NCBI RefSeq assembly: GCF_053078305.1
Contig: NZ_CP166879.1
DNA length: 64,000 bases
Direction: 5' to 3' (one strand)
Below, piece after piece: positions 1 through 9,281 of the stretch. How positions within the stretch are numbered: the stretch's first letter is position 1; the number at the start of each line of letters is the position of its first letter. Made by a program: the position numbers and the translations under genes. The notes beneath the pieces are model-generated. The model made no database searches. It was not told the DNA's origin and was given only the letters and a program-made list of their open reading frames with translations.

Positions 1-2
1 CC

Positions 3-2879
3 AATCCTGACACTTATTTCCAGTCTCGCGAAGCCACCAACCCATGGTACAACGCGGTCTATGACCATGTTGAACAGGCGATGAATGATTTCGCTGCCGC
101 GACAGGTCGTCAGTATCAGCCGTTTGAATATTACGGGCATCCGCAAGCGGAACGGGTGATTATCCTGATGGGCTCTGCCATTGGTACCTGTGAAGAAGTG
201 GTTGATGAATTGCTAACCCGTGGCGAAAAAGTTGGCGTGCTGAAAGTTCGTCTGTACCGTCCCTTCTCCGCCAAACACTTGCTGCAAGCTCTGCCGGGAT
301 CCGTACGCAGCGTGGCGGTACTGGACAGAACCAAAGAACCCGGTGCCCAGGCAGAACCGCTCTATCTGGATGTAATGACCGCACTGGCAGAAGCCTTTAA
401 TAATGGCGAGCGCGAAACTCTGCCCCGTGTCATTGGTGGGCGCTATGGTCTTTCATCCAAAGAATTTGGCCCGGACTGTGTACTGGCGGTATTTGCCGAG
501 CTCAACGCGGCTAAACCGAAAGCGCGCTTTACGGTTGGTATTTACGATGATGTGACCAATCTGTCACTGCCGTTGCCGGAAAACACCCTGCCAAACTCGG
601 CGAAACTGGAAGCCTTGTTTTATGGGCTTGGTAGTGATGGCAGCGTTTCCGCGACCAAAAACAATATCAAGATTATCGGTAATTCCACGCCGTGGTACGC
701 ACAGGGCTATTTTGTTTACGACTCCAAAAAGGCGGGCGGCCTGACGGTTTCTCACCTTCGAGTGAGCGAACAGCCGATTCGTTCCGCTTATCTCATTTCC
801 CAGGCTGATTTTGTTGGCTGCCACCAGTTGCAGTTTATCGATAAATATCAGATGGCTGAGCGTTTAAAACCTGGCGGCATTTTCCTGCTCAACACGCCGT
901 ACAGCGCAGATGAAGTGTGGTCGCGCTTGCCGCAGGAAGTTCAGGCCGTGCTAAATCAGAAAAAAGCGCGCTTCTATGTGATTAACGCGGCGAAAATCGC
1001 CCGCGAATGTGGCCTGGCGGCCCGTATTAATACCGTCATGCAGATGGCTTTTTTCCATCTGACGCAAATTCTGCCTGGCGATAGCGCCCTCGCAGAATTG
1101 CAGGGTGCGATTGCCAAAAGTTACAGTAGCAAAGGTCAGGATCTGGTGGAACGCAACTGGCAGGCTCTGGCGCTGGCGCGTGAATCCGTAGAAGAAGTTC
1201 CGTTGCAGCCGGTTAATCCGCACAGCGCCAATCGACCGCCAGTGGTTTCCGATGCCGCCCCTGATTTCGTGAAAACCGTAACCGCGGCGATGCTCGCCGG
1301 GCTTGGTGATGCCCTCCCCGTTTCGGCGCTGCCGCCAGACGGCACCTGGCCGATGGGCACTACACGCTGGGAAAAACGCAATATCGCCGAAGAGATCCCC
1401 ATCTGGAAAGAGGAACTCTGTACCCAATGTAACCACTGTGTTGCCGCTTGCCCACACTCAGCTATTCGCGCAAAAGTGGTACCGCCTGAAGCGATGGAAA
1501 ACGCCCCTGCCAGCCTGCATTCGCTGGATGTGAAATCGCGTGATATGCGCGGGCAGAAATATGTCTTGCAGGTGGCTCCGGAAGATTGCACCGGTTGTAA
1601 CCTGTGCGTCGAAGTTTGCCCGGCGAAAGACCGTCAGAATCCAGAGATTAAAGCCATCAATATGATGTCGCGCCTGGAACATGTCGAAGAAGAGAAAATC
1701 AATTACGATTTCTTCCTCAACCTGCCAGAAATCGACCGTAGCAAACTGGAACGTATTGATATTCGTACATCGCAGCTGATTACACCGCTGTTTGAATATT
1801 CCGGTGCTTGCTCCGGTTGTGGCGAGACGCCGTATATTAAATTGCTGACTCAGCTCTATGGCGACCGGATGTTGATCGCTAACGCCACCGGCTGTTCTTC
1901 AATTTATGGCGGTAACCTGCCCTCTACACCGTATACCACCGATGCCAACGGTCGTGGGCCGGCATGGGCGAACTCTCTATTTGAAGATAATGCCGAATTT
2001 GGCCTTGGTTTCCGCCTGACGGTCGATCAACACCGTGTCCGCGTGCTGCGTCTGCTGGATCAATTTGCCGATAAAATCCCGGCGGAATTACTGACGGCGT
2101 TGAAATCAGACGCTACGCCAGAGGTTCGTCGAGAACAGGTCGCAGCTTTACGCCAGCAACTCAACGATGTTGCCGAAGCACATGAACTGCTGCGTGACGC
2201 AGATGCACTGGTAGAAAAATCAATCTGGCTGATTGGTGGCGACGGCTGGGCTTACGATATCGGCTTTGGCGGTCTGGATCATGTATTGAGTTTGACGGAA
2301 AACGTCAACATTCTGGTGCTGGATACGCAATGCTATTCCAACACCGGTGGTCAGGCGTCGAAAGCGACACCGCTGGGTGCAGTAACTAAATTTGGCGAGC
2401 ACGGCAAACGTAAAGCGCGTAAAGATCTTGGCGTCAGTATGATGATGTACGGTCATGTTTATGTGGCGCAGATTTCTCTCGGCGCGCAACTGAACCAGAC
2501 GGTGAAAGCGATTCAGGAAGCGGAAGCGTATCCGGGACCATCGCTGATCATCGCTTATAGCCCATGTGAAGAGCATGGTTACGATCTGGCACTCAGCCAT
2601 GACCAGATGCGCCAACTCACAGCTACCGGCTTCTGGCCGCTATATCGCTTCGATCCGCGTCGTGCCGATGAAGGCAAACTGCCGCTGGCGCTGGATTCAC
2701 GCCCGCCGTCAGAAGCACTGGAAGAAACGTTACTTCACGAGCAACGTTTCCGTCGTCTGAATTCGCAGCAGCCAGAAGTGGCAGAACAGTTATGGAAAGA
2801 TGCTGCAGCTGATTTGCAAAAACGCTATGACTTCCTGGCACAAATGGCCGGAAAAGCGGAAAAAAGCAACACCGATTAA
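3..2879 (+). CDS. ydbK: Pyruvate:flavodoxin/ferredoxin oxidoreductase, C-terminal ~959 codons; 5-prime end lies upstream of the window
   Basis: Reading frame is open from position 3 with no stop before the first ATG at 81. Two 4Fe-4S ferredoxin motifs (CTQCNHCVAACP, CTGCNLCVEVCP) and a TPP-binding GDGW region are present. Stop at 2879. Confidence 0.9.
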   Translation, partial: NPDTYFQSREATNPWYNAVYDHVEQAMNDFAAATGRQYQPFEYYGHPQAERVIILMGSAIGTCEEVVDELLTRGEKVGVLKVRLYRPFSAKHLLQALPGSVRSVAVLDRTKEPGAQAEPLYLDVMTALAEAFNNGERETLPRVIGGRYGLSSKEFGPDCVLAVFAELNAAKPKARFTVGIYDDVTNLSLPLPENTLPNSAKLEALFYGLGSDGSVSATKNNIKIIGNSTPWYAQGYFVYDSKKAGGLTVSHLRVSEQPIRSAYLISQADFVGCHQLQFIDKYQMAERLKPGGIFLLNTPYSADEVWSRLPQEVQAVLNQKKARFYVINAAKIARECGLAARINTVMQMAFFHLTQILPGDSALAELQGAIAKSYSSKGQDLVERNWQALALARESVEEVPLQPVNPHSANRPPVVSDAAPDFVKTVTAAMLAGLGDALPVSALPPDGTWPMGTTRWEKRNIAEEIPIWKEELCTQCNHCVAACPHSAIRAKVVPPEAMENAPASLHSLDVKSRDMRGQKYVLQVAPEDCTGCNLCVEVCPAKDRQNPEIKAINMMSRLEHVEEEKINYDFFLNLPEIDRSKLERIDIRTSQLITPLFEYSGACSGCGETPYIKLLTQLYGDRMLIANATGCSSIYGGNLPSTPYTTDANGRGPAWANSLFEDNAEFGLGFRLTVDQHRVRVLRLLDQFADKIPAELLTALKSDATPEVRREQVAALRQQLNDVAEAHELLRDADALVEKSIWLIGGDGWAYDIGFGGLDHVLSLTENVNILVLDTQCYSNTGGQASKATPLGAVTKFGEHGKRKARKDLGVSMMMYGHVYVAQISLGAQLNQTVKAIQEAEAYPGPSLIIAYSPCEEHGYDLALSHDQMRQLTATGFWPLYRFDPRRADEGKLPLALDSRPPSEALEETLLHEQRFRRLNSQQPEVAEQLWKDAAADLQKRYDFLAQMAGKAEKSNTD

Positions 2880-2908
2880 ATGCTCTGGATAAGGATTATC
2901 CAATTCTA

Positions 2909-3017
2909 AAAAAAAGCCCGGACGACTGTTCGGGCTTGTCTTTTTATATGTTGGAAAATCAGTGGCAATGCAATGGCCCAACAGAAAATAAAATCTGTGA
3001 CAATAAAGGCATATAAC
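2909..3017 (-). ncRNA. micC: MicC small regulatory RNA, divergent from ompN
   Basis: Minus-strand sequence GTTATATGCCTTTATTGTCACAGATTTTATTTTCTGTTGGGCC... matches the MicC sequence as I recall it. It ends in the hairpin GCCCGAACAGTCGTCCGGGC plus a U-run. Confidence 0.8.
2916..2935. terminator. Bidirectional intrinsic terminator shared by ydbK (plus) and micC (minus)
   Basis: GC-rich inverted repeat gcccg-N10-cgggc flanked by an A-run (2908-2915) and a T-rich run (2938-2944). Confidence 0.7.
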
Positions 3018-3244
3018 CCGCGCAGAATAACGTATAGAAAATTAAAAGTATAATTTTTATTTTGTATGTATTATCTTCGATACATTCACCAGACTTATTA
3101 TCATTTCAGAGGAATTATTTGATTAAGGTTTTACTTAAGGCGTAACAAATGATATTTATCGGCTAACTGAACTTCTCCTTTAGGATGTTTTCACTCCCCG
3201 AAATGGGGATAAAAGGCAAATAAAATAACTAAAGGATTTATTCA

Positions 3245-4378
3245 ATGAAAAGCAAAGTACTGGCACTTTTAATTCCTGCCCTGCTCGCCGCAGGTGCTGC
3301 ACATGCAGCCGAAGTTTATAATAAAGACGGCAACAAATTAGATCTGTATGGCAAAGTTGATGGCCTGCATTATTTTTCTGATAATTCAGCGAAAGATGGC
3401 GACCAGAGCTATGCGCGTCTGGGTTTTAAAGGCGAAACCCAAATTAACGATCAACTTACTGGCTACGGTCAATGGGAATACAATATTCAGGCAAACAACA
3501 CTGAATCTTCAAAAAACCAGTCATGGACCCGTCTGGCATTTGCCGGACTGAAATTTGCAGATTACGGTTCTTTCGATTACGGACGTAATTATGGCGTAAT
3601 GTACGACATCGAAGGCTGGACCGATATGCTGCCTGAATTTGGCGGTGACTCTTATACCAATGCAGACAACTTTATGACTGGTCGAGCCAATGGCGTCGCG
3701 ACTTATCGTAATACTGATTTCTTCGGTCTGGTAAATGGTCTGAACTTCGCGGTGCAGTATCAAGGTAACAACGAAGGAGCCAGTAATGGTCAGGAAGGCA
3801 CCAACAACGGACGTGATGTTCGCCATGAAAACGGTGACGGCTGGGGTCTTTCCACAACATATGATTTAGGCATGGGCTTTAGCGCTGGTGCGGCATACAC
3901 ATCTTCTGACCGCACCAATGACCAGGTTAACCATACTGCGGCGGGTGGTGATAAAGCAGACGCGTGGACTGCTGGGCTAAAATACGATGCTAACAATATT
4001 TACCTGGCAACCATGTATTCAGAAACGCGTAATATGACCCCGTTTGGCGACAGCGATTATGCTGTTGCAAACAAAACCCAGAACTTTGAAGTCACTGCAC
4101 AGTACCAGTTTGATTTTGGTCTGCGTCCGGCAGTCTCTTTCCTGATGTCTAAAGGCCGTGACCTGCACGCTGCCGGTGGTGCAGACAACCCGGCAGGTGT
4201 TGATGATAAAGATCTGGTTAAATACGCCGATGTTGGCGCGACTTACTATTTCAATAAAAACATGTCCACCTATGTTGACTATAAAATCAACCTGTTGGAT
4301 GAAGATGACAGTTTCTACGCTGCCAACGGCATCTCTACCGATGATATTGTCGCTTTAGGTCTGGTTTATCAGTTCTAA
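3245..4378 (+). CDS. ompN: Outer membrane porin N (OmpC/OmpF family), 377 aa
   Basis: Signal peptide [21 protein letters not shown] followed by [16 protein letters not shown], a typical general-porin N-terminus, and a C-terminal aromatic residue. Length matches the K-12 protein. Confidence 0.9.
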
Positions 4379-4386
4379 ATCCTCCT

Positions 4387-4411
4387 GCCCGCTGTTATGG
4401 CGGGCTTTTTC
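4387..4411 (+). terminator. Intrinsic terminator after ompN
   Basis: Hairpin gcccgc-tgttatg-gcgggc followed by ttttt. Confidence 0.7.
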
Positions 4412-4437
4412 TGCTTATTCTTCCTCCTTTGATCTAA

Positions 4438-4953
<516 letters not shown>

Positions 4954-4960
4954 CACTAAC

Positions 4961-4985
4961 GCCCGCACATTGCTGCGGGCTTTTT
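4961..4985 (+). terminator. Intrinsic terminator after uspF
   Basis: Hairpin gcccgca...tgcgggc followed by ttttt. Confidence 0.6.
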
Positions 4986-5128
4986 GATTCATTTCGCAAA
5001 TGTGCTGACATTTTCCCCTCTAATCCGTACCATACACGCCACAGTTTTTATATCAGATTTCTTATGCTGGGCGTTCCGGCATGACGCATACTCTTCTGAT
5101 GCCATATAACGAATTGAGTCGCTTTTAA

Positions 5129-6064
5129 ATGTCGCAAAATCAAGAAATTAGCAAGAAAGAACAATACAACCTGAACAAATTACAAAAACGTCTGCGTCGT
5201 AACGTGGGCGAAGCCATTGCTGACTTCAATATGATTGAAGAAGGCGATCGCATCATGGTTTGCCTCTCCGGGGGTAAAGACAGCTATACCATGCTGGAGA
5301 TTCTGCGCAATTTGCAGCAAAGCGCGCCAATCAATTTTTCGCTGGTGGCTGTTAACCTCGATCAAAAGCAACCGGGCTTCCCGGAACACGTTCTGCCCGA
5401 GTATCTTGAAAAGCTGGGCGTTGAGTACAAGATTGTTGAAGAGAACACTTACGGTATCGTGAAAGAGAAGATTCCAGAGGGCAAAACCACTTGCTCACTG
5501 TGTTCTCGGCTACGTCGCGGTATCCTTTATCGCACCGCAACGGAACTGGGGGCGACGAAGATCGCGTTGGGCCACCATCGTGACGATATCCTGCAAACGT
5601 TGTTCTTAAATATGTTCTACGGCGGCAAGATGAAAGGTATGCCTCCGAAACTGATGAGCGATGATGGCAAACATATCGTTATTCGTCCGCTGGCCTACTG
5701 CCGCGAGAAAGATATTCAGCGATTTGCCGATGCAAAAGCGTTCCCGATTATTCCGTGCAACCTGTGCGGTTCACAGCCTAACCTGCAACGTCAGGTGATT
5801 GCTGACATGTTGCGTGACTGGGATAAACGTTATCCAGGGCGTATCGAGACGATGTTCAGCGCGATGCAGAATGTGGTGCCGTCGCATCTGTGCGATACCA
5901 ACCTGTTCGATTTCAAAGGCATCACCCACGGTTCTGAAGTGGTTAACGGGGGTGATCTGGCGTTTGATCGCGAAGAGATCCCACTACAACCGGCGGGCTG
6001 GCAGCCAGAAGAAGATGAAAATCAGTTGGATGAGTTACGGCTGAATGTGGTTGAAGTGAAATAA
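5129..6064 (+). CDS. ttcA: tRNA 2-thiocytidine biosynthesis protein TtcA, 311 aa, uninterrupted
   Basis: PP-loop motif CLSGGKDS and conserved Cys pairs. Full length equals the K-12 protein. Confidence 0.9.
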
Positions 6065-6192: not shown

Positions 6193-7566
6193 TTATTTTA
6201 ATAACCGCACCCGGCACGTTTTTCCTTTAATCTTCCCGCCCTGTAACTGTTTCCATGCTTTATGAGCAACAGCCTGACGGACCGCGACATAGACATGCGC
6301 CGGATGCACGGCGATTTTGCCAATATCTGCGCCATCAAGCCCGATATCTCCTGTCAGTGCACCTAATACATCACCCGGGCGCATTTTGGCTTTTTTCCCG
6401 CCATCGATACACAACGTTGCCATTTCTGCTTCCAGCGTCACAATGGAACTATTAGCTGGCGGCGTTTGCCAGTTAAGTTTTATCTGCAACATGTCAGAAA
6501 TGATATTGGCCCGCTGTGCTTCTTCCGGAGCACAGAAACTGATCGCCAGACCGCTATTTCCTGCACGAGCTGTACGACCGATGCGATGTACATGAACTTC
6601 AGGGTCCCACGCCAGCTCAAAGTTCACCACCAGCTCAAGCGATTTAATATCCAGACCACGCGCAGCAACATCAGTCGCGACCAGTACACGGGCGCTACCG
6701 TTAGCAAAACGTACCAGGGTCTGATCGCGATCGCGTTGCTCCAAATCGCCGTGTAATGACAATGCACTTTGCCCTACTTCATTCAGCGCGTCGCAGACAG
6801 CCTGGCAATCTTTTTTGGTATTGCAAAACACCACGCAAGAGGATGGCTGATGCAAGCTTAATAACCGTTGCAACAGAGGAATTTTGCCTTTACTGGATGT
6901 CTCATAAAATTGTTGATCAATGGGTGGCAAAGCATCTGTTGAGTCAATTTCAATCGCCAAAGGATCGCGTTGCACTCGTCCGCTGATTGCGGCGATGGCT
7001 TCCGGCCAGGTTGCCGAAAACAGAAGCGTCTGTCGAGATGCTGGCGCAAAACGGATGACATCATCAATGGCATCGCTAAATCCCATATCCAGCATGCGGT
7101 CGGCCTCATCCATCACCAGCGTATTCAACGCATCCAGTGATACCGTGCCTTTTTGCAGGTGATCCAGCAAACGCCCCGGCGTTGCCACGATAATATGCGG
7201 CGCATGTTGCAACGAATCACGCTGCATACCGAACGGTTGACCACCGCACAACGTCAAAATTTTGGTATTTGGCAGAAAACGCGCCAGCCGACGCAATTCA
7301 CCTGCCACCTGATCCGCCAGTTCACGCGTAGGACACAGCACTAAAGCCTGGGTTTGAAATAGCGACGCATCAATTTGCTGTAACAAGCCGAGGCCAAAAG
7401 CCGCCGTTTTGCCGCTGCCGGTTTTCGCCTGCACGCGAACATCTTTTCCGGCAAGGATCGCCGGAAGCGCGGCGGCCTGCACCGGCGTCATGGTTAAATA
7501 ACCCAACTCATTAAGGTTCGTGAGTTGGGCGGGAGGCAAAACATTCAGGGTAGAAAAAGCGGTCAC
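6193..7566 (-). CDS. dbpA: ATP-dependent 23S rRNA-specific DEAD-box RNA helicase DbpA, 457 aa, GTG start
   Basis: DEAD box (VMDEADRM), Walker A (AKTGSGKT) and SAT motif. The start codon is GTG (plus-strand cac at 7564-7566). Confidence 0.9.
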   Translation of the reverse strand: MTAFSTLNVLPPAQLTNLNELGYLTMTPVQAAALPAILAGKDVRVQAKTGSGKTAAFGLGLLQQIDASLFQTQALVLCPTRELADQVAGELRRLARFLPNTKILTLCGGQPFGMQRDSLQHAPHIIVATPGRLLDHLQKGTVSLDALNTLVMDEADRMLDMGFSDAIDDVIRFAPASRQTLLFSATWPEAIAAISGRVQRDPLAIEIDSTDALPPIDQQFYETSSKGKIPLLQRLLSLHQPSSCVVFCNTKKDCQAVCDALNEVGQSALSLHGDLEQRDRDQTLVRFANGSARVLVATDVAARGLDIKSLELVVNFELAWDPEVHVHRIGRTARAGNSGLAISFCAPEEAQRANIISDMLQIKLNWQTPPANSSIVTLEAEMATLCIDGGKKAKMRPGDVLGALTGDIGLDGADIGKIAVHPAHVYVAVRQAVAHKAWKQLQGGKIKGKTCRVRLLK

Positions 7567-7595
7567 AATCTATTCTCGTGGTCATCGACGCAAAG

Positions 7596-7769
7596 TTAGC
7601 AGGCGCGTATCCTCGCAGATCTACGTTCACGATGCGACAATTTAATCGGTTCTTCATCGGGTGGTGGGTCAGGCATGGGTTGCGGGCGAGGGATCGGATC
7701 GGGCACTGGAACAGGATCGCCAGGAATCGGTTCAGGGACAGGAATTTGCAAATAAATAAGTGTCGTCAT
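7596..7769 (-). CDS. Candidate 57-aa proline-rich small protein or leader peptide immediately upstream of dbpA
   Basis: ATG preceded by GGAGGG about 6 nt upstream. Translation MTTLIYLQIPVPEPIPGDPVPVPDPIPRPQPMPDPPPDEEPIKLSHRERRSARIRAC. Stop lies 29 nt before the dbpA start. Too short for the supplied ORF track. Confidence 0.3.
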   Translation of the reverse strand: MTTLIYLQIPVPEPIPGDPVPVPDPIPRPQPMPDPPPDEEPIKLSHRERRSARIRAC

Positions 7770-7826
7770 ATTTCCCTCCGGTCATTGGGTGGACTCTTAA
7801 AGGGTAGACGCTGATAAATAACAGGC

Positions 7827-7948
7827 AAAAAAAAGCCGACTCATCAAAGTCGGCGTCGTACGAATCAATTGTGCTATGCAGTAATTCAAAAAAGGAAGTA
7901 AGACAATATGGAGCGCAACGCCCATCGCTTGACGTTGCATTCACCTGC
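7827..7948 (-). ncRNA. fnrS: FnrS small RNA (FNR-activated)
   Basis: Minus-strand GCAGGTGAATGCAACGTCAAGCGATGGGCGTTGCGCTCCATATTGTCTTACTTCC... ending in hairpin GCCGACTTTGATGAGTCGGC plus U8, matching FnrS as I recall it. Confidence 0.8.
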
Positions 7949-8043: not shown

Positions 8044-9048
<1,005 letters not shown>

Positions 9049-9281
9049 TTATTTTGTAGTCTAGCCTTCTGGCCCTGTTACGCAACATCTCATCACCCCA
9101 TTACCCTGAAATGATTAATAAAATTCTGTCTAAATTGAATACAAAAAGCAAAATGCTTTTCCGTATACAAACCGTGTGAAGTGTTAAATAGCGTCTATCA
9201 TTATCAGAATTATCTGATCATATGACGTGGCTTTTTTGCGATCGGATAGCAACAAAAATTGATAAAAATAATGGGATCTCA

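Follow-up and report, generated by a model that had tools for sequence, protein, structure and literature searches.

We have analysed a short open reading frame in a stretch of 64,000 nucleotides of E. coli DNA (RefSeq assembly GCF_053078305.1, contig NZ_CP166879.1), here called the window. The frame lies on the minus strand, between the gene for the small RNA FnrS and dbpA. The genes and signals concerned are as follows.

7831..7948, minus strand: fnrS sRNA gene, directly upstream of ynaL (Rfam RF01796, 134.8 bits)
7774..7779, minus strand: Shine-Dalgarno sequence of ynaL, GGAGGG (AGAGGG in MG1655, AAAGGG in some Escherichia species)
7596..7769, minus strand: ynaL coding sequence, 57 codons and TAA; protein identical to that of MG1655 b4743
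6193..7566, minus strand: dbpA (DEAD-box helicase), 29 nt 3′ of ynaL with no intervening terminator; probable second cistron
5129-6064, plus strand: ttcA, neighbour of dbpA

Further neighbours in the region are zntB and dgcM.

A preliminary description of this locus, made from the letters alone, had reported a minus-strand frame of 57 codons with 16 prolines and a PPP run, ending 29 nt ahead of dbpA. These statements are borne out. The translation of 7596..7769 matches the sequence quoted there, proline accounts for 16 of the 57 residues, and with the TAA at 7598-7596 and the GTG of dbpA at 7566 the gap is 29 nt. A Shine-Dalgarno sequence had been placed about 6 nt before the ATG. The GGAGGG is indeed present and the distance is roughly right; the spacer to the ATG at 7769 is actually 4 nt (AAAT), the motif spanning 10 to 5 nt upstream. 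The locus had also been taken to be that of K-12, and here the description erred. The DNA of the window does belong to E. coli, though to a strain other than K-12. Over the ynaL region it agrees with MG1655 at 99.2% of positions (43 mismatches in 5,442 nt), and the Rac prophage is absent next to ttcA. At ynaL itself one base of the Shine-Dalgarno sequence and one synonymous base (codon 48) differ from MG1655, and the YnaL protein is 100% identical.

The frame is, with virtual certainty, ynaL (b4743), a known small-protein gene of E. coli. In NC_000913.3 this gene (b4743, YP_009518775.1) stands in the same fnrS-ynaL-dbpA order. The protein belongs to the Pfam family PF23677, which it matches over residues 1-57 of 57 with E = 2e-40 (136.9 bits, against a cut-off of 27). 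A 271-nt query across the frame found matches covering at least 80% of its length in 5,390 of 5,426 complete E. coli genomes, and in 29 of 30 records sampled across the ranking the matched feature was annotated as ynaL, 'proline-rich small protein YnaL' or 'protein YnaL'. Because ynaL is annotated in about this many of the complete genomes, the finding of a proline-rich frame here is a rediscovery of a gene already annotated and experimentally detected. Thus the existing annotation about which the preliminary description had been unsure does exist, under the name ynaL/b4743, in Pfam and in the RefSeq E. coli genomes.

The region was formerly called as an sRNA, C0343 (Rfam RF00120, withdrawn), and in EPEC a 75-nt 'ncRNA' (ncR17) was annotated at −148..−74 of dbpA, which lies within ynaL. 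Ribosome profiling (RIBOseq) in EHEC gave C0343/ynaL a ribosome coverage value (RCV) of 2.49 (Neuhaus et al. 2017, PMC5331693). The same paper states that the C0343 family was removed from Rfam, and it cites an RNAcode analysis according to which C0343 encodes a 57-aa protein (Washietl et al. 2011, as cited in PMC5331693). Chromosomally SPA-tagged YnaL was subsequently seen by immunoblot, and the gene was given its name (VanOrsdel et al. 2018, PMC6001520); YnaL was flagged there in a tetracycline ribosome-profiling screen, and a possible ynaL-dbpA operon was already remarked on. When the C0343 fragment was overexpressed, biofilm was at only 73%. No paper addressing a function of YnaL was found in our literature search.

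Does the sequence of the peptide matter? Our comparison set comprised 45 loci overall. The genome scan covered 33 other species-level loci, all of them with the order fnrS-ynaL-dbpA, and selection statistics were calculated on 26 non-redundant species. Two features of the reading frame are needed here.

7650..7724, minus strand: proline-rich acidic core PGDPVPVPDPIPRPQPMPDPPPDEE, codons 16-40; protein-level purifying selection, conserved into Erwiniaceae
7656..7670, minus strand: DPPPD, codons 34-38; predicted EF-P-dependent stall motif, mostly, not universally, conserved

Across the 26 species codons 16-56 align without gaps. In codons 16-40 synonymous sites are near saturation (pS 0.62; the value for dbpA is 0.64) and pN is 0.113, giving pN/pS = 0.18 and a Jukes-Cantor dN/dS of 0.09; the variation is concentrated on third codon positions. 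Outside the core the constraint is relaxed at the N terminus, where the first ~14 residues vary freely, and E. coli E69 has an in-frame deletion of 33 nt in ynaL. The preliminary description had proposed weighing synonymous against non-synonymous change as a check on the frame, and doing so has revealed a coding signal. The core follows an acidic XP repeat across the homologs, DPxPxDPVPxPDPIPxPQPxPDPP. AlphaFold predicts neither secondary structure nor a globular fold for YnaL (pTM 0.23), and its confidence is high only at extended residues 21-40, so the model suggests an extended, non-globular peptide. The conclusion from the alignments is that ynaL is genuinely protein-coding and that the sequence of its peptide is of consequence, far above what a chance reading frame would give.

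That the locus encodes only a non-coding RNA, as in the old C0343 call, with the frame incidental, is extremely improbable. In favour of that call is a transcript seen in earlier work, which received an ncRNA annotation (EPEC ncR17), but the third-position variation, a dN/dS of about 0.1 and the codon periodicity of the ynaL alignment all speak against it. Moreover RF00120 has been withdrawn, an Rfam search of the ynaL region gave no match even at E<=10, and the published ribosome coverage and tagged protein refute a purely non-coding call.

In each of the 45 comparison loci the sRNA gene fnrS precedes ynaL, and between the two we find a putative promoter that begins inside the T-tract of the fnrS terminator.

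7801..7828, minus strand: putative ynaL(-dbpA) promoter, −35 TTGCCT at 7828-7823, 16-bp spacer, −10 TACCCT at 7806-7801

In 34 of 37 loci TTGCCT (or a variant differing by 1-2 bases) is followed by exactly 16 bp of varying sequence and then TAC(C/G)CT; in Erwinia the equivalent detected by a promoter scanner is TTGCCA-17-TATGCT. Because the hexamers and their spacing are conserved while the sequence of the spacer is free, we infer that ynaL is transcribed from its own promoter, overlapping the fnrS terminator. The −10 context TCTACCCTTAA resembles an extended −10 of the sigma-S type.

We also examined how far ynaL extends beyond the species in which it precedes dbpA. Of 1.84 billion representatives searched with a profile, only 33 matched. 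The divergent homologs among them keep the core pattern and have different C termini. In Phytobacter diazotrophicus, Enterobacter sp. BIGb0383 (an unclassified Enterobacter), Scandinavium sp. and Mixta the order is zntB-fnrS-ynaL-hairpin-convergent ttcA, without dbpA. In Erwinia a terminator and ttcA separate ynaL from dbpA, which has promoter-like signals of its own. The YnaL core is conserved in all five of these lineages. Since ynaL persists there without a neighbouring dbpA, it is on this comparative evidence not primarily a dbpA leader. The gene would appear to be linked to fnrS rather than to dbpA, and to predate the adjacency of the latter. Being older than, and independent of, that adjacency, its primary role would thus be as a free-standing peptide. 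The preliminary description had offered a free-standing small protein as one of its two options, and this is the option that gains support from the purifying selection on the core, the putative promoter and the persistence of the gene where dbpA is not its neighbour.

Close adjacency of ynaL and dbpA is found in the Escherichia-Citrobacter-Salmonella-Enterobacter-Klebsiella-Kosakonia group. Most gaps there measure 27-29 nt, and the exceptions are 23, 14 and −50 nt. The last of these is that of K. michiganensis and K. grimontii, where the ynaL frame runs 50 nt into dbpA, showing that a simple termination-reinitiation coupling is not universal. No terminator-like site was found between ynaL and dbpA. 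The Shine-Dalgarno sequence of dbpA is weak (GAGA), its start codon is GUG, and both are involved in a hairpin.

7564..7580, minus strand: hairpin CACGA-GAAUAGA-UUGUG around the dbpA Shine-Dalgarno sequence (GAGA) and GUG; pairing conserved in 21 species

This 5-bp hairpin is positioned 16-32 nt past the ynaL stop codon. In the 21 species 94% of cells are paired, compared with 24-43% for slid controls, and every change in the 5′ arm preserves pairing. Because there is no terminator, the Shine-Dalgarno sequence is weak and the GUG lies inside a hairpin, dbpA probably forms the second cistron of a joint mRNA with ynaL in the Escherichia-Klebsiella clade. The same three properties, taken with the junction-specific invariant element described below, make it plausible that in E. 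coli dbpA is secondarily coupled to the translation of ynaL.

Three other readings of the junction were considered and rejected. Recoding, or fusion of ynaL with dbpA, fails since the frame of one gene relative to the other changes from genus to genus (gaps of 27, 28, 29, 23, 14 and −50 nt). An overlapping 48-aa frame in the +1 register (7511-7657) loses its ATG when codon 38 is GAC and has a variable stop position. A 78-aa frame on the antisense strand (7578-7814, plus strand) is open only by way of CCN becoming NGG, and the variable sites fall at its first codon positions.

The end of ynaL behaves quite differently from its core. The last 55 nt contain two stretches in which the nucleotide sequence itself is held constant.

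7631..7649, minus strand: invariant block 1, CCGATTAAATTGTCGCATC, codons 41-46 plus 1 nt; pS = 0.000 across 26 species
7602..7622, minus strand: invariant block 2, AGATCTGCGAGGATACGCGCC, codons 50-56; contains AGA, AGG and ATA
7609..7620, minus strand: candidate RNA hairpin AUCU-GCGA-GGAU (GNRA tetraloop) within block 2; inner stem invariant

The codons of block 1 are CCG ATT AAA TTG TCG CAT and those of block 2 AGA TCT GCG AGG ATA CGC GCC. Synonymous change is essentially nil in both (pS 0.000 in codons 41-46 and 0.013 in codons 50-56), and the three codons that separate them vary freely. In the ynaL tail 12 of 13 codons are invariant, as against 7 of the 298 dbpA codons that have an invariant amino acid (2.3%; P about 3e-20). 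In Kosakonia cowanii and one further locus (L040) a stop codon ends the ynaL frame at ...EEPIK(L/M)SR, and block 2 is kept intact in the untranslated spacer. Neither block occurs in any of the five loci without an adjacent dbpA. Since block 2 is kept where it is untranslated, and the blocks are missing where dbpA does not adjoin, the constraint on the tail evidently acts on RNA or DNA and not on the peptide, and is specific to the ynaL-dbpA junction, as judged from the alignments.

AGA, AGG and AUA are the three rarest codons of E. coli, and all of them are found in the ynaL tail. Selection for rare codons alone would not fix the common codons that adjoin them. The candidate GNRA hairpin has a 4-bp stem, and the sole substitution in its loop (GAGA, in Kosakonia) remains GNRA. 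An outer extension of the stem is partly supported, with 26-81% paired per position. It is close to certain from the pattern of conservation that the junction element has a function, and it is the only item of this analysis that may possibly be new. We suggest tentatively, as a possibility that we would not yet rate as probable, that the last 55 nt of ynaL are an undescribed dual-use cis-regulatory RNA (or DNA) element controlling DbpA synthesis, which arose upon the placement of dbpA behind ynaL. More speculatively, the element may make DbpA respond to the flux of ribosomes through a DPPPD-containing frame that ends in AGA, AGG and AUA.

What might such an element be? A number of candidates were tried and set aside. 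Mimicry of the DbpA substrate (hairpin 92 of 23S rRNA, nt 2454-2606) was rejected, the local alignment score lying within the shuffle distribution on both strands, and resemblance to the sarcin-ricin loop was dismissed by inspection. Nor is there any indication that the junction adopts a strong, conserved RNA fold, as z = 0.2, there are no compensatory pairs and the minimum free energies are species-specific. Pairing of FnrS with the leader reached −13.7 kcal/mol at best, which is equalled by 12% of background windows; unrestricted duplex folding with ArcZ or FnrS gave no discrimination. Paralogous copies were excluded, the element being present at one place per E. coli genome, and the overlapping frames in other registers do not account for the invariance. 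An arginine-rich-motif peptide that binds its own GNRA hairpin was also rejected, for the number of arginines is not conserved (Salmonella has SHQTPGSARIRAC). Nothing usable on ynaL or dbpA was found in the CLASH, RIL-seq, 3′-end mapping and EF-P/EfpL data that were searched.

Three further explanations of the invariant blocks have to be weighed. One of these is that they constitute a DNA-level signal, i.e., an internal promoter or operator for dbpA in the 3′ end of ynaL. The invariance of all three codon positions, the retention of the blocks where untranslated, their occurrence only where dbpA adjoins, and the palindromic AGATCT and GCG...CGC in block 2 are consistent with this. Against it, the search for a sigma-70-like promoter was negative on both strands, manual checks of sigma-54, sigma-E and sigma-28 spacing failed (Enterobacter, for example, lacks the −12 GC), the conserved stretches of 19-21 bp exceed promoter hexamers, and E. 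coli genomes hold no second copy that would suggest a regulon site. On balance we consider a DNA signal unlikely. Still less likely, to our minds, is that block 2 is the target of a trans-acting sRNA. The candidate is ArcZ, whose seed GGCGCAGUAUUCGCGC would pair with UGCGAGGAUACGCGCC; a predicted duplex energy of −25.5 kcal/mol places this pairing among the best 0.4% of 25-nt windows across the 64 kb, and both the seed and block 2 are invariant across Enterobacteriaceae. However, many sites are expected genome-wide at the same energy threshold, and the choice of ArcZ carries a look-elsewhere bias. The searchable CLASH and RIL-seq supplementary tables have no dbpA or ynaL entries, and no paper was found that links ArcZ mechanistically with dbpA. 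The C-to-A change in Kosakonia weakens the ArcZ duplex yet preserves the GNRA loop, and such pairing leaves block 1 and AGAUC unexplained.

The tail might alternatively act as an arrest peptide of the SecM/TnaC kind, in which ribosomes would halt on the invariant C-terminal RSARIRA(C), near the stop codon, and open the hairpin at the dbpA start. The combination of a variable N terminus with an invariant C terminus and the small hairpin over the dbpA start would be in keeping with this, as would the 'IRA' of the tail, which resembles the GIRAGP of SecM. Nevertheless the idea is highly improbable. The tail is untranslated in K. cowanii and its nucleotides are still kept, it is absent from the distant YnaL homologs, and in Klebsiella, Raoultella and others the frame runs 2-6 codons past IRAC. 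What is conserved is the nucleotide sequence, with no synonymous change, not specifically the peptide; the tail is thus not a C-terminal motif required as peptide, as in SecM, TnaC and MifM.

A further explanation concerns the proline run in place of the tail. The preliminary description had proposed, as its other option, a leader with ribosome-stalling, EF-P-dependent proline contexts. On such a model a stall at DPPPD under shortage of EF-P or Pro-tRNA would alter dbpA expression, through Rho loading on the C-rich ynaL RNA or through altered coupling, and this would tie DbpA, a helicase of 50S assembly, to translation capacity. Of 120 clusters of YnaL homologs 110 (92%) have the PPP, as do 27 of the 33 species loci, so DPPPD is kept in most of the family. 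According to published abstracts PPP stalls require EF-P, and in E. coli loss of EF-P leads to Rho-dependent polarity at polyproline motifs (PMC5021804). In the RNA of the ynaL core C is abundant (42-48%) and G scarce (17-22%), dbpA follows 29 nt downstream with a weak translation initiation region (TIR), and in the literature both DbpA and EF-P are higher in exponential phase. Distant homologs often carry a second PPP that ends two codons before the stop; together with the frequency of the first, this is a hint that proline-dependent kinetics of translation may be selected.

As the primary role of ynaL, however, an EF-P-dependent leader is unsupported. E. albertii and the C. youngae group have PSP where others have the PPP, C. 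amalonaticus has PPQ and a Raoultella species PPA, with the remaining peptide retained. Purifying selection covers the full 25-residue core and not the proline run alone. The co-occurrence of frame and regulated gene that marks a leader is broken in five lineages, where ynaL has its own downstream hairpin and no dbpA behind it. Neither attenuator nor anti-attenuator structures were found at ynaL-dbpA; there are no alternative terminator and antiterminator forms and no terminator-like site, the z-score of the minimum free energy is 0.2, no covariation is seen and the folds are species-specific. Tagged YnaL accumulates, unlike a typical leader peptide, and the searched part of the EF-P/EfpL pause table has no ynaL entry. 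We therefore regard the EF-P leader as improbable, to about the same degree as the DNA signal.

The explanation that we prefer is composite, and we hold it with reasonable though by no means complete confidence: YnaL is a free-standing peptide, and ynaL-dbpA is an operon with a junction element that tunes dbpA. YnaL would be a polyproline peptide, acidic and extended, that is expressed from a promoter of its own beside fnrS and acts in trans on a putative partner. Among E. coli and close relatives dbpA would have come to lie 27-29 nt behind ynaL, with no terminator separating the two, and so be co-transcribed with it. Expression of dbpA would in that case rely on the promoter of ynaL and, in part, on ribosomes finishing ynaL. 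These would reach the end of the frame after passing DPPPD and then the rare codons AGA, AGG and AUA, and the junction element, at the level of RNA or DNA, probably tunes dbpA expression. Ribosome flux may plausibly contribute, whether through coupled translation or through Rho polarity on the C-rich RNA, as for other polyproline genes in PMC5021804.

The regulation of dbpA is essentially unstudied, and the YnaL peptide and the junction element present two separate objects for experiment. The reasons for treating them separately are three comparative results that also sharpen the tests, i.e., a protein-selected core linked to fnrS, a putative promoter over the fnrS terminator, and a translation-independent junction element of ~50 nt.

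How does this locus compare with known systems? The XP repeats of YnaL recall the proline-rich spacer of TonB (PF16031), but the likeness lies in composition alone (11 bits, where the cut-off is 33 bits), and unlike TonB the peptide has neither TonB domains nor a membrane anchor. With SecM-secA and TnaC-tnaA the locus shares an upstream small frame with a conserved 3′ end and a hairpin at the downstream start. It differs in that the conservation of the ynaL 3′ end is at the nucleotide level and outlasts the loss of translation in K. cowanii, and in that no arrest motif is common to the YnaL family.

The coupling of transcription and translation by EF-P (Elgamal, Artsimovitch and Ibba 2016) is also comparable, with a polyproline motif, C-rich and G-poor RNA and a probably co-transcribed gene behind, an arrangement in which the loss of EF-P led to Rho-dependent polarity. 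The ynaL-dbpA pair is not among the loci discussed by those authors, and there is no documented Rho-dependent terminator here. Finally, mgtP of mgtCBR and mgtL of mgtA in Salmonella are, like ynaL, short frames with consecutive proline codons ahead of a larger gene, and by this likeness EF-P or the availability of proline could modulate the progress of ribosomes, ynaL and dbpA being probably co-transcribed. At 18 aa mgtP is the shorter, and it switches alternative stem-loops in a long leader, structures of a kind not found with the 57-aa ynaL. Furthermore, ynaL has a core selected as peptide and a product that accumulates, and in several lineages the gene exists without the one that it would be supposed to regulate.

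Within the last 55 nt of ynaL, two blocks are almost devoid of synonymous change among the ~40 species compared. By contrast, synonymous sites in dbpA are close to saturation (P about 3e-20). We list the blocks with the other elements considered here.

7631-7649, minus strand: block 1, CCGATTAAATTGTCGCATC, within the ynaL 3′ end
7602-7622, minus strand: block 2, AGATCTGCGAGGATACGCGCC, within the ynaL 3′ end
7564-7580, minus strand: 5-bp hairpin CACGA/UUGUG around the GUG that starts dbpA; a portion of the weak dbpA Shine-Dalgarno (SD) sequence is also inside
7801-7828, minus strand: conserved promoter-like element TTGCCT-N16-TACCCT, beginning within the fnrS terminator T-tract
9041-9088, minus strand: 15-codon small ORF, annotated in K-12 as ynaN (b4773), 14 nt upstream of zntB
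L036:578-698 (coordinates within locus L036): arcZ, the duplex partner compared with block 2

In Kosakonia cowanii the blocks are kept though untranslated, and both are missing from loci where dbpA is not adjacent. The hairpin at the dbpA start is 94% paired across 21 species, and all changes in its 5′ arm preserve pairing. The seed region of the sRNA ArcZ is complementary to block 2, the duplex of −25.5 kcal mol-1 falling within the top 0.4% of windows. Interactome support for this pairing was not found in the CLASH and RIL-seq supplementary tables that could be searched, and the predicted interaction is therefore regarded as a weak candidate lead. One locus labeled Salmonella enterica (L040, CP191473.1) has a ynaL-dbpA junction resembling that of Kosakonia, with a truncated ynaL ORF and a GAGA variant of block 2. 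In this it departs from L010 and L014, the Salmonella loci, and either mislabeling or horizontal transfer may be the reason.

The RNA of the ynaL core (7650-7745, minus strand) contains 42-48% C and 17-22% G. This composition is rut-like, and would favor loading of Rho if the ORF were untranslated. Distant YnaL homologs from Mixta, Phytobacter and Erwinia (P0136, P0139, P0140, P0143) carry a second proline run two codons from the stop, with the endings DPPPHR-stop, DPPPHM-stop and DPPPYR-stop. Such endings hint that the kinetics of proline-dependent translation close to the end of the ORF may be under selection, even where there is no downstream gene. In E. coli E69 (L009) a 33-nt in-frame deletion leaves a YnaL of 46 aa, and in Klebsiella michiganensis and K. 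grimontii (L031, L032) the stop codon is lost, extending the ORF 50 nt into dbpA.

Of 37 loci, 34 carry the promoter-like arrangement beside fnrS. Its spacer varies in sequence and has lost 9 bp in one Citrobacter lineage (L023, L024, L026). The fnrS sRNA is itself translated by ORF finders and some gene callers into a 47-aa ORF (MQRQAMGVALHIV..., 7797-7940, minus strand), which one public record (P0145) joins to a YnaL homolog as a 106-aa 'protein'. This is an annotation artifact.

Around ynaL the window is 99.2% identical to MG1655, and the strain is not K-12 MG1655, differing at 7779, 7626 and 1-5128. The ynaL SD sequence is GGAGGG here vs AGAGGG in MG1655. After ttcA come uspF-ompN-nifJ, in place of the Rac prophage.
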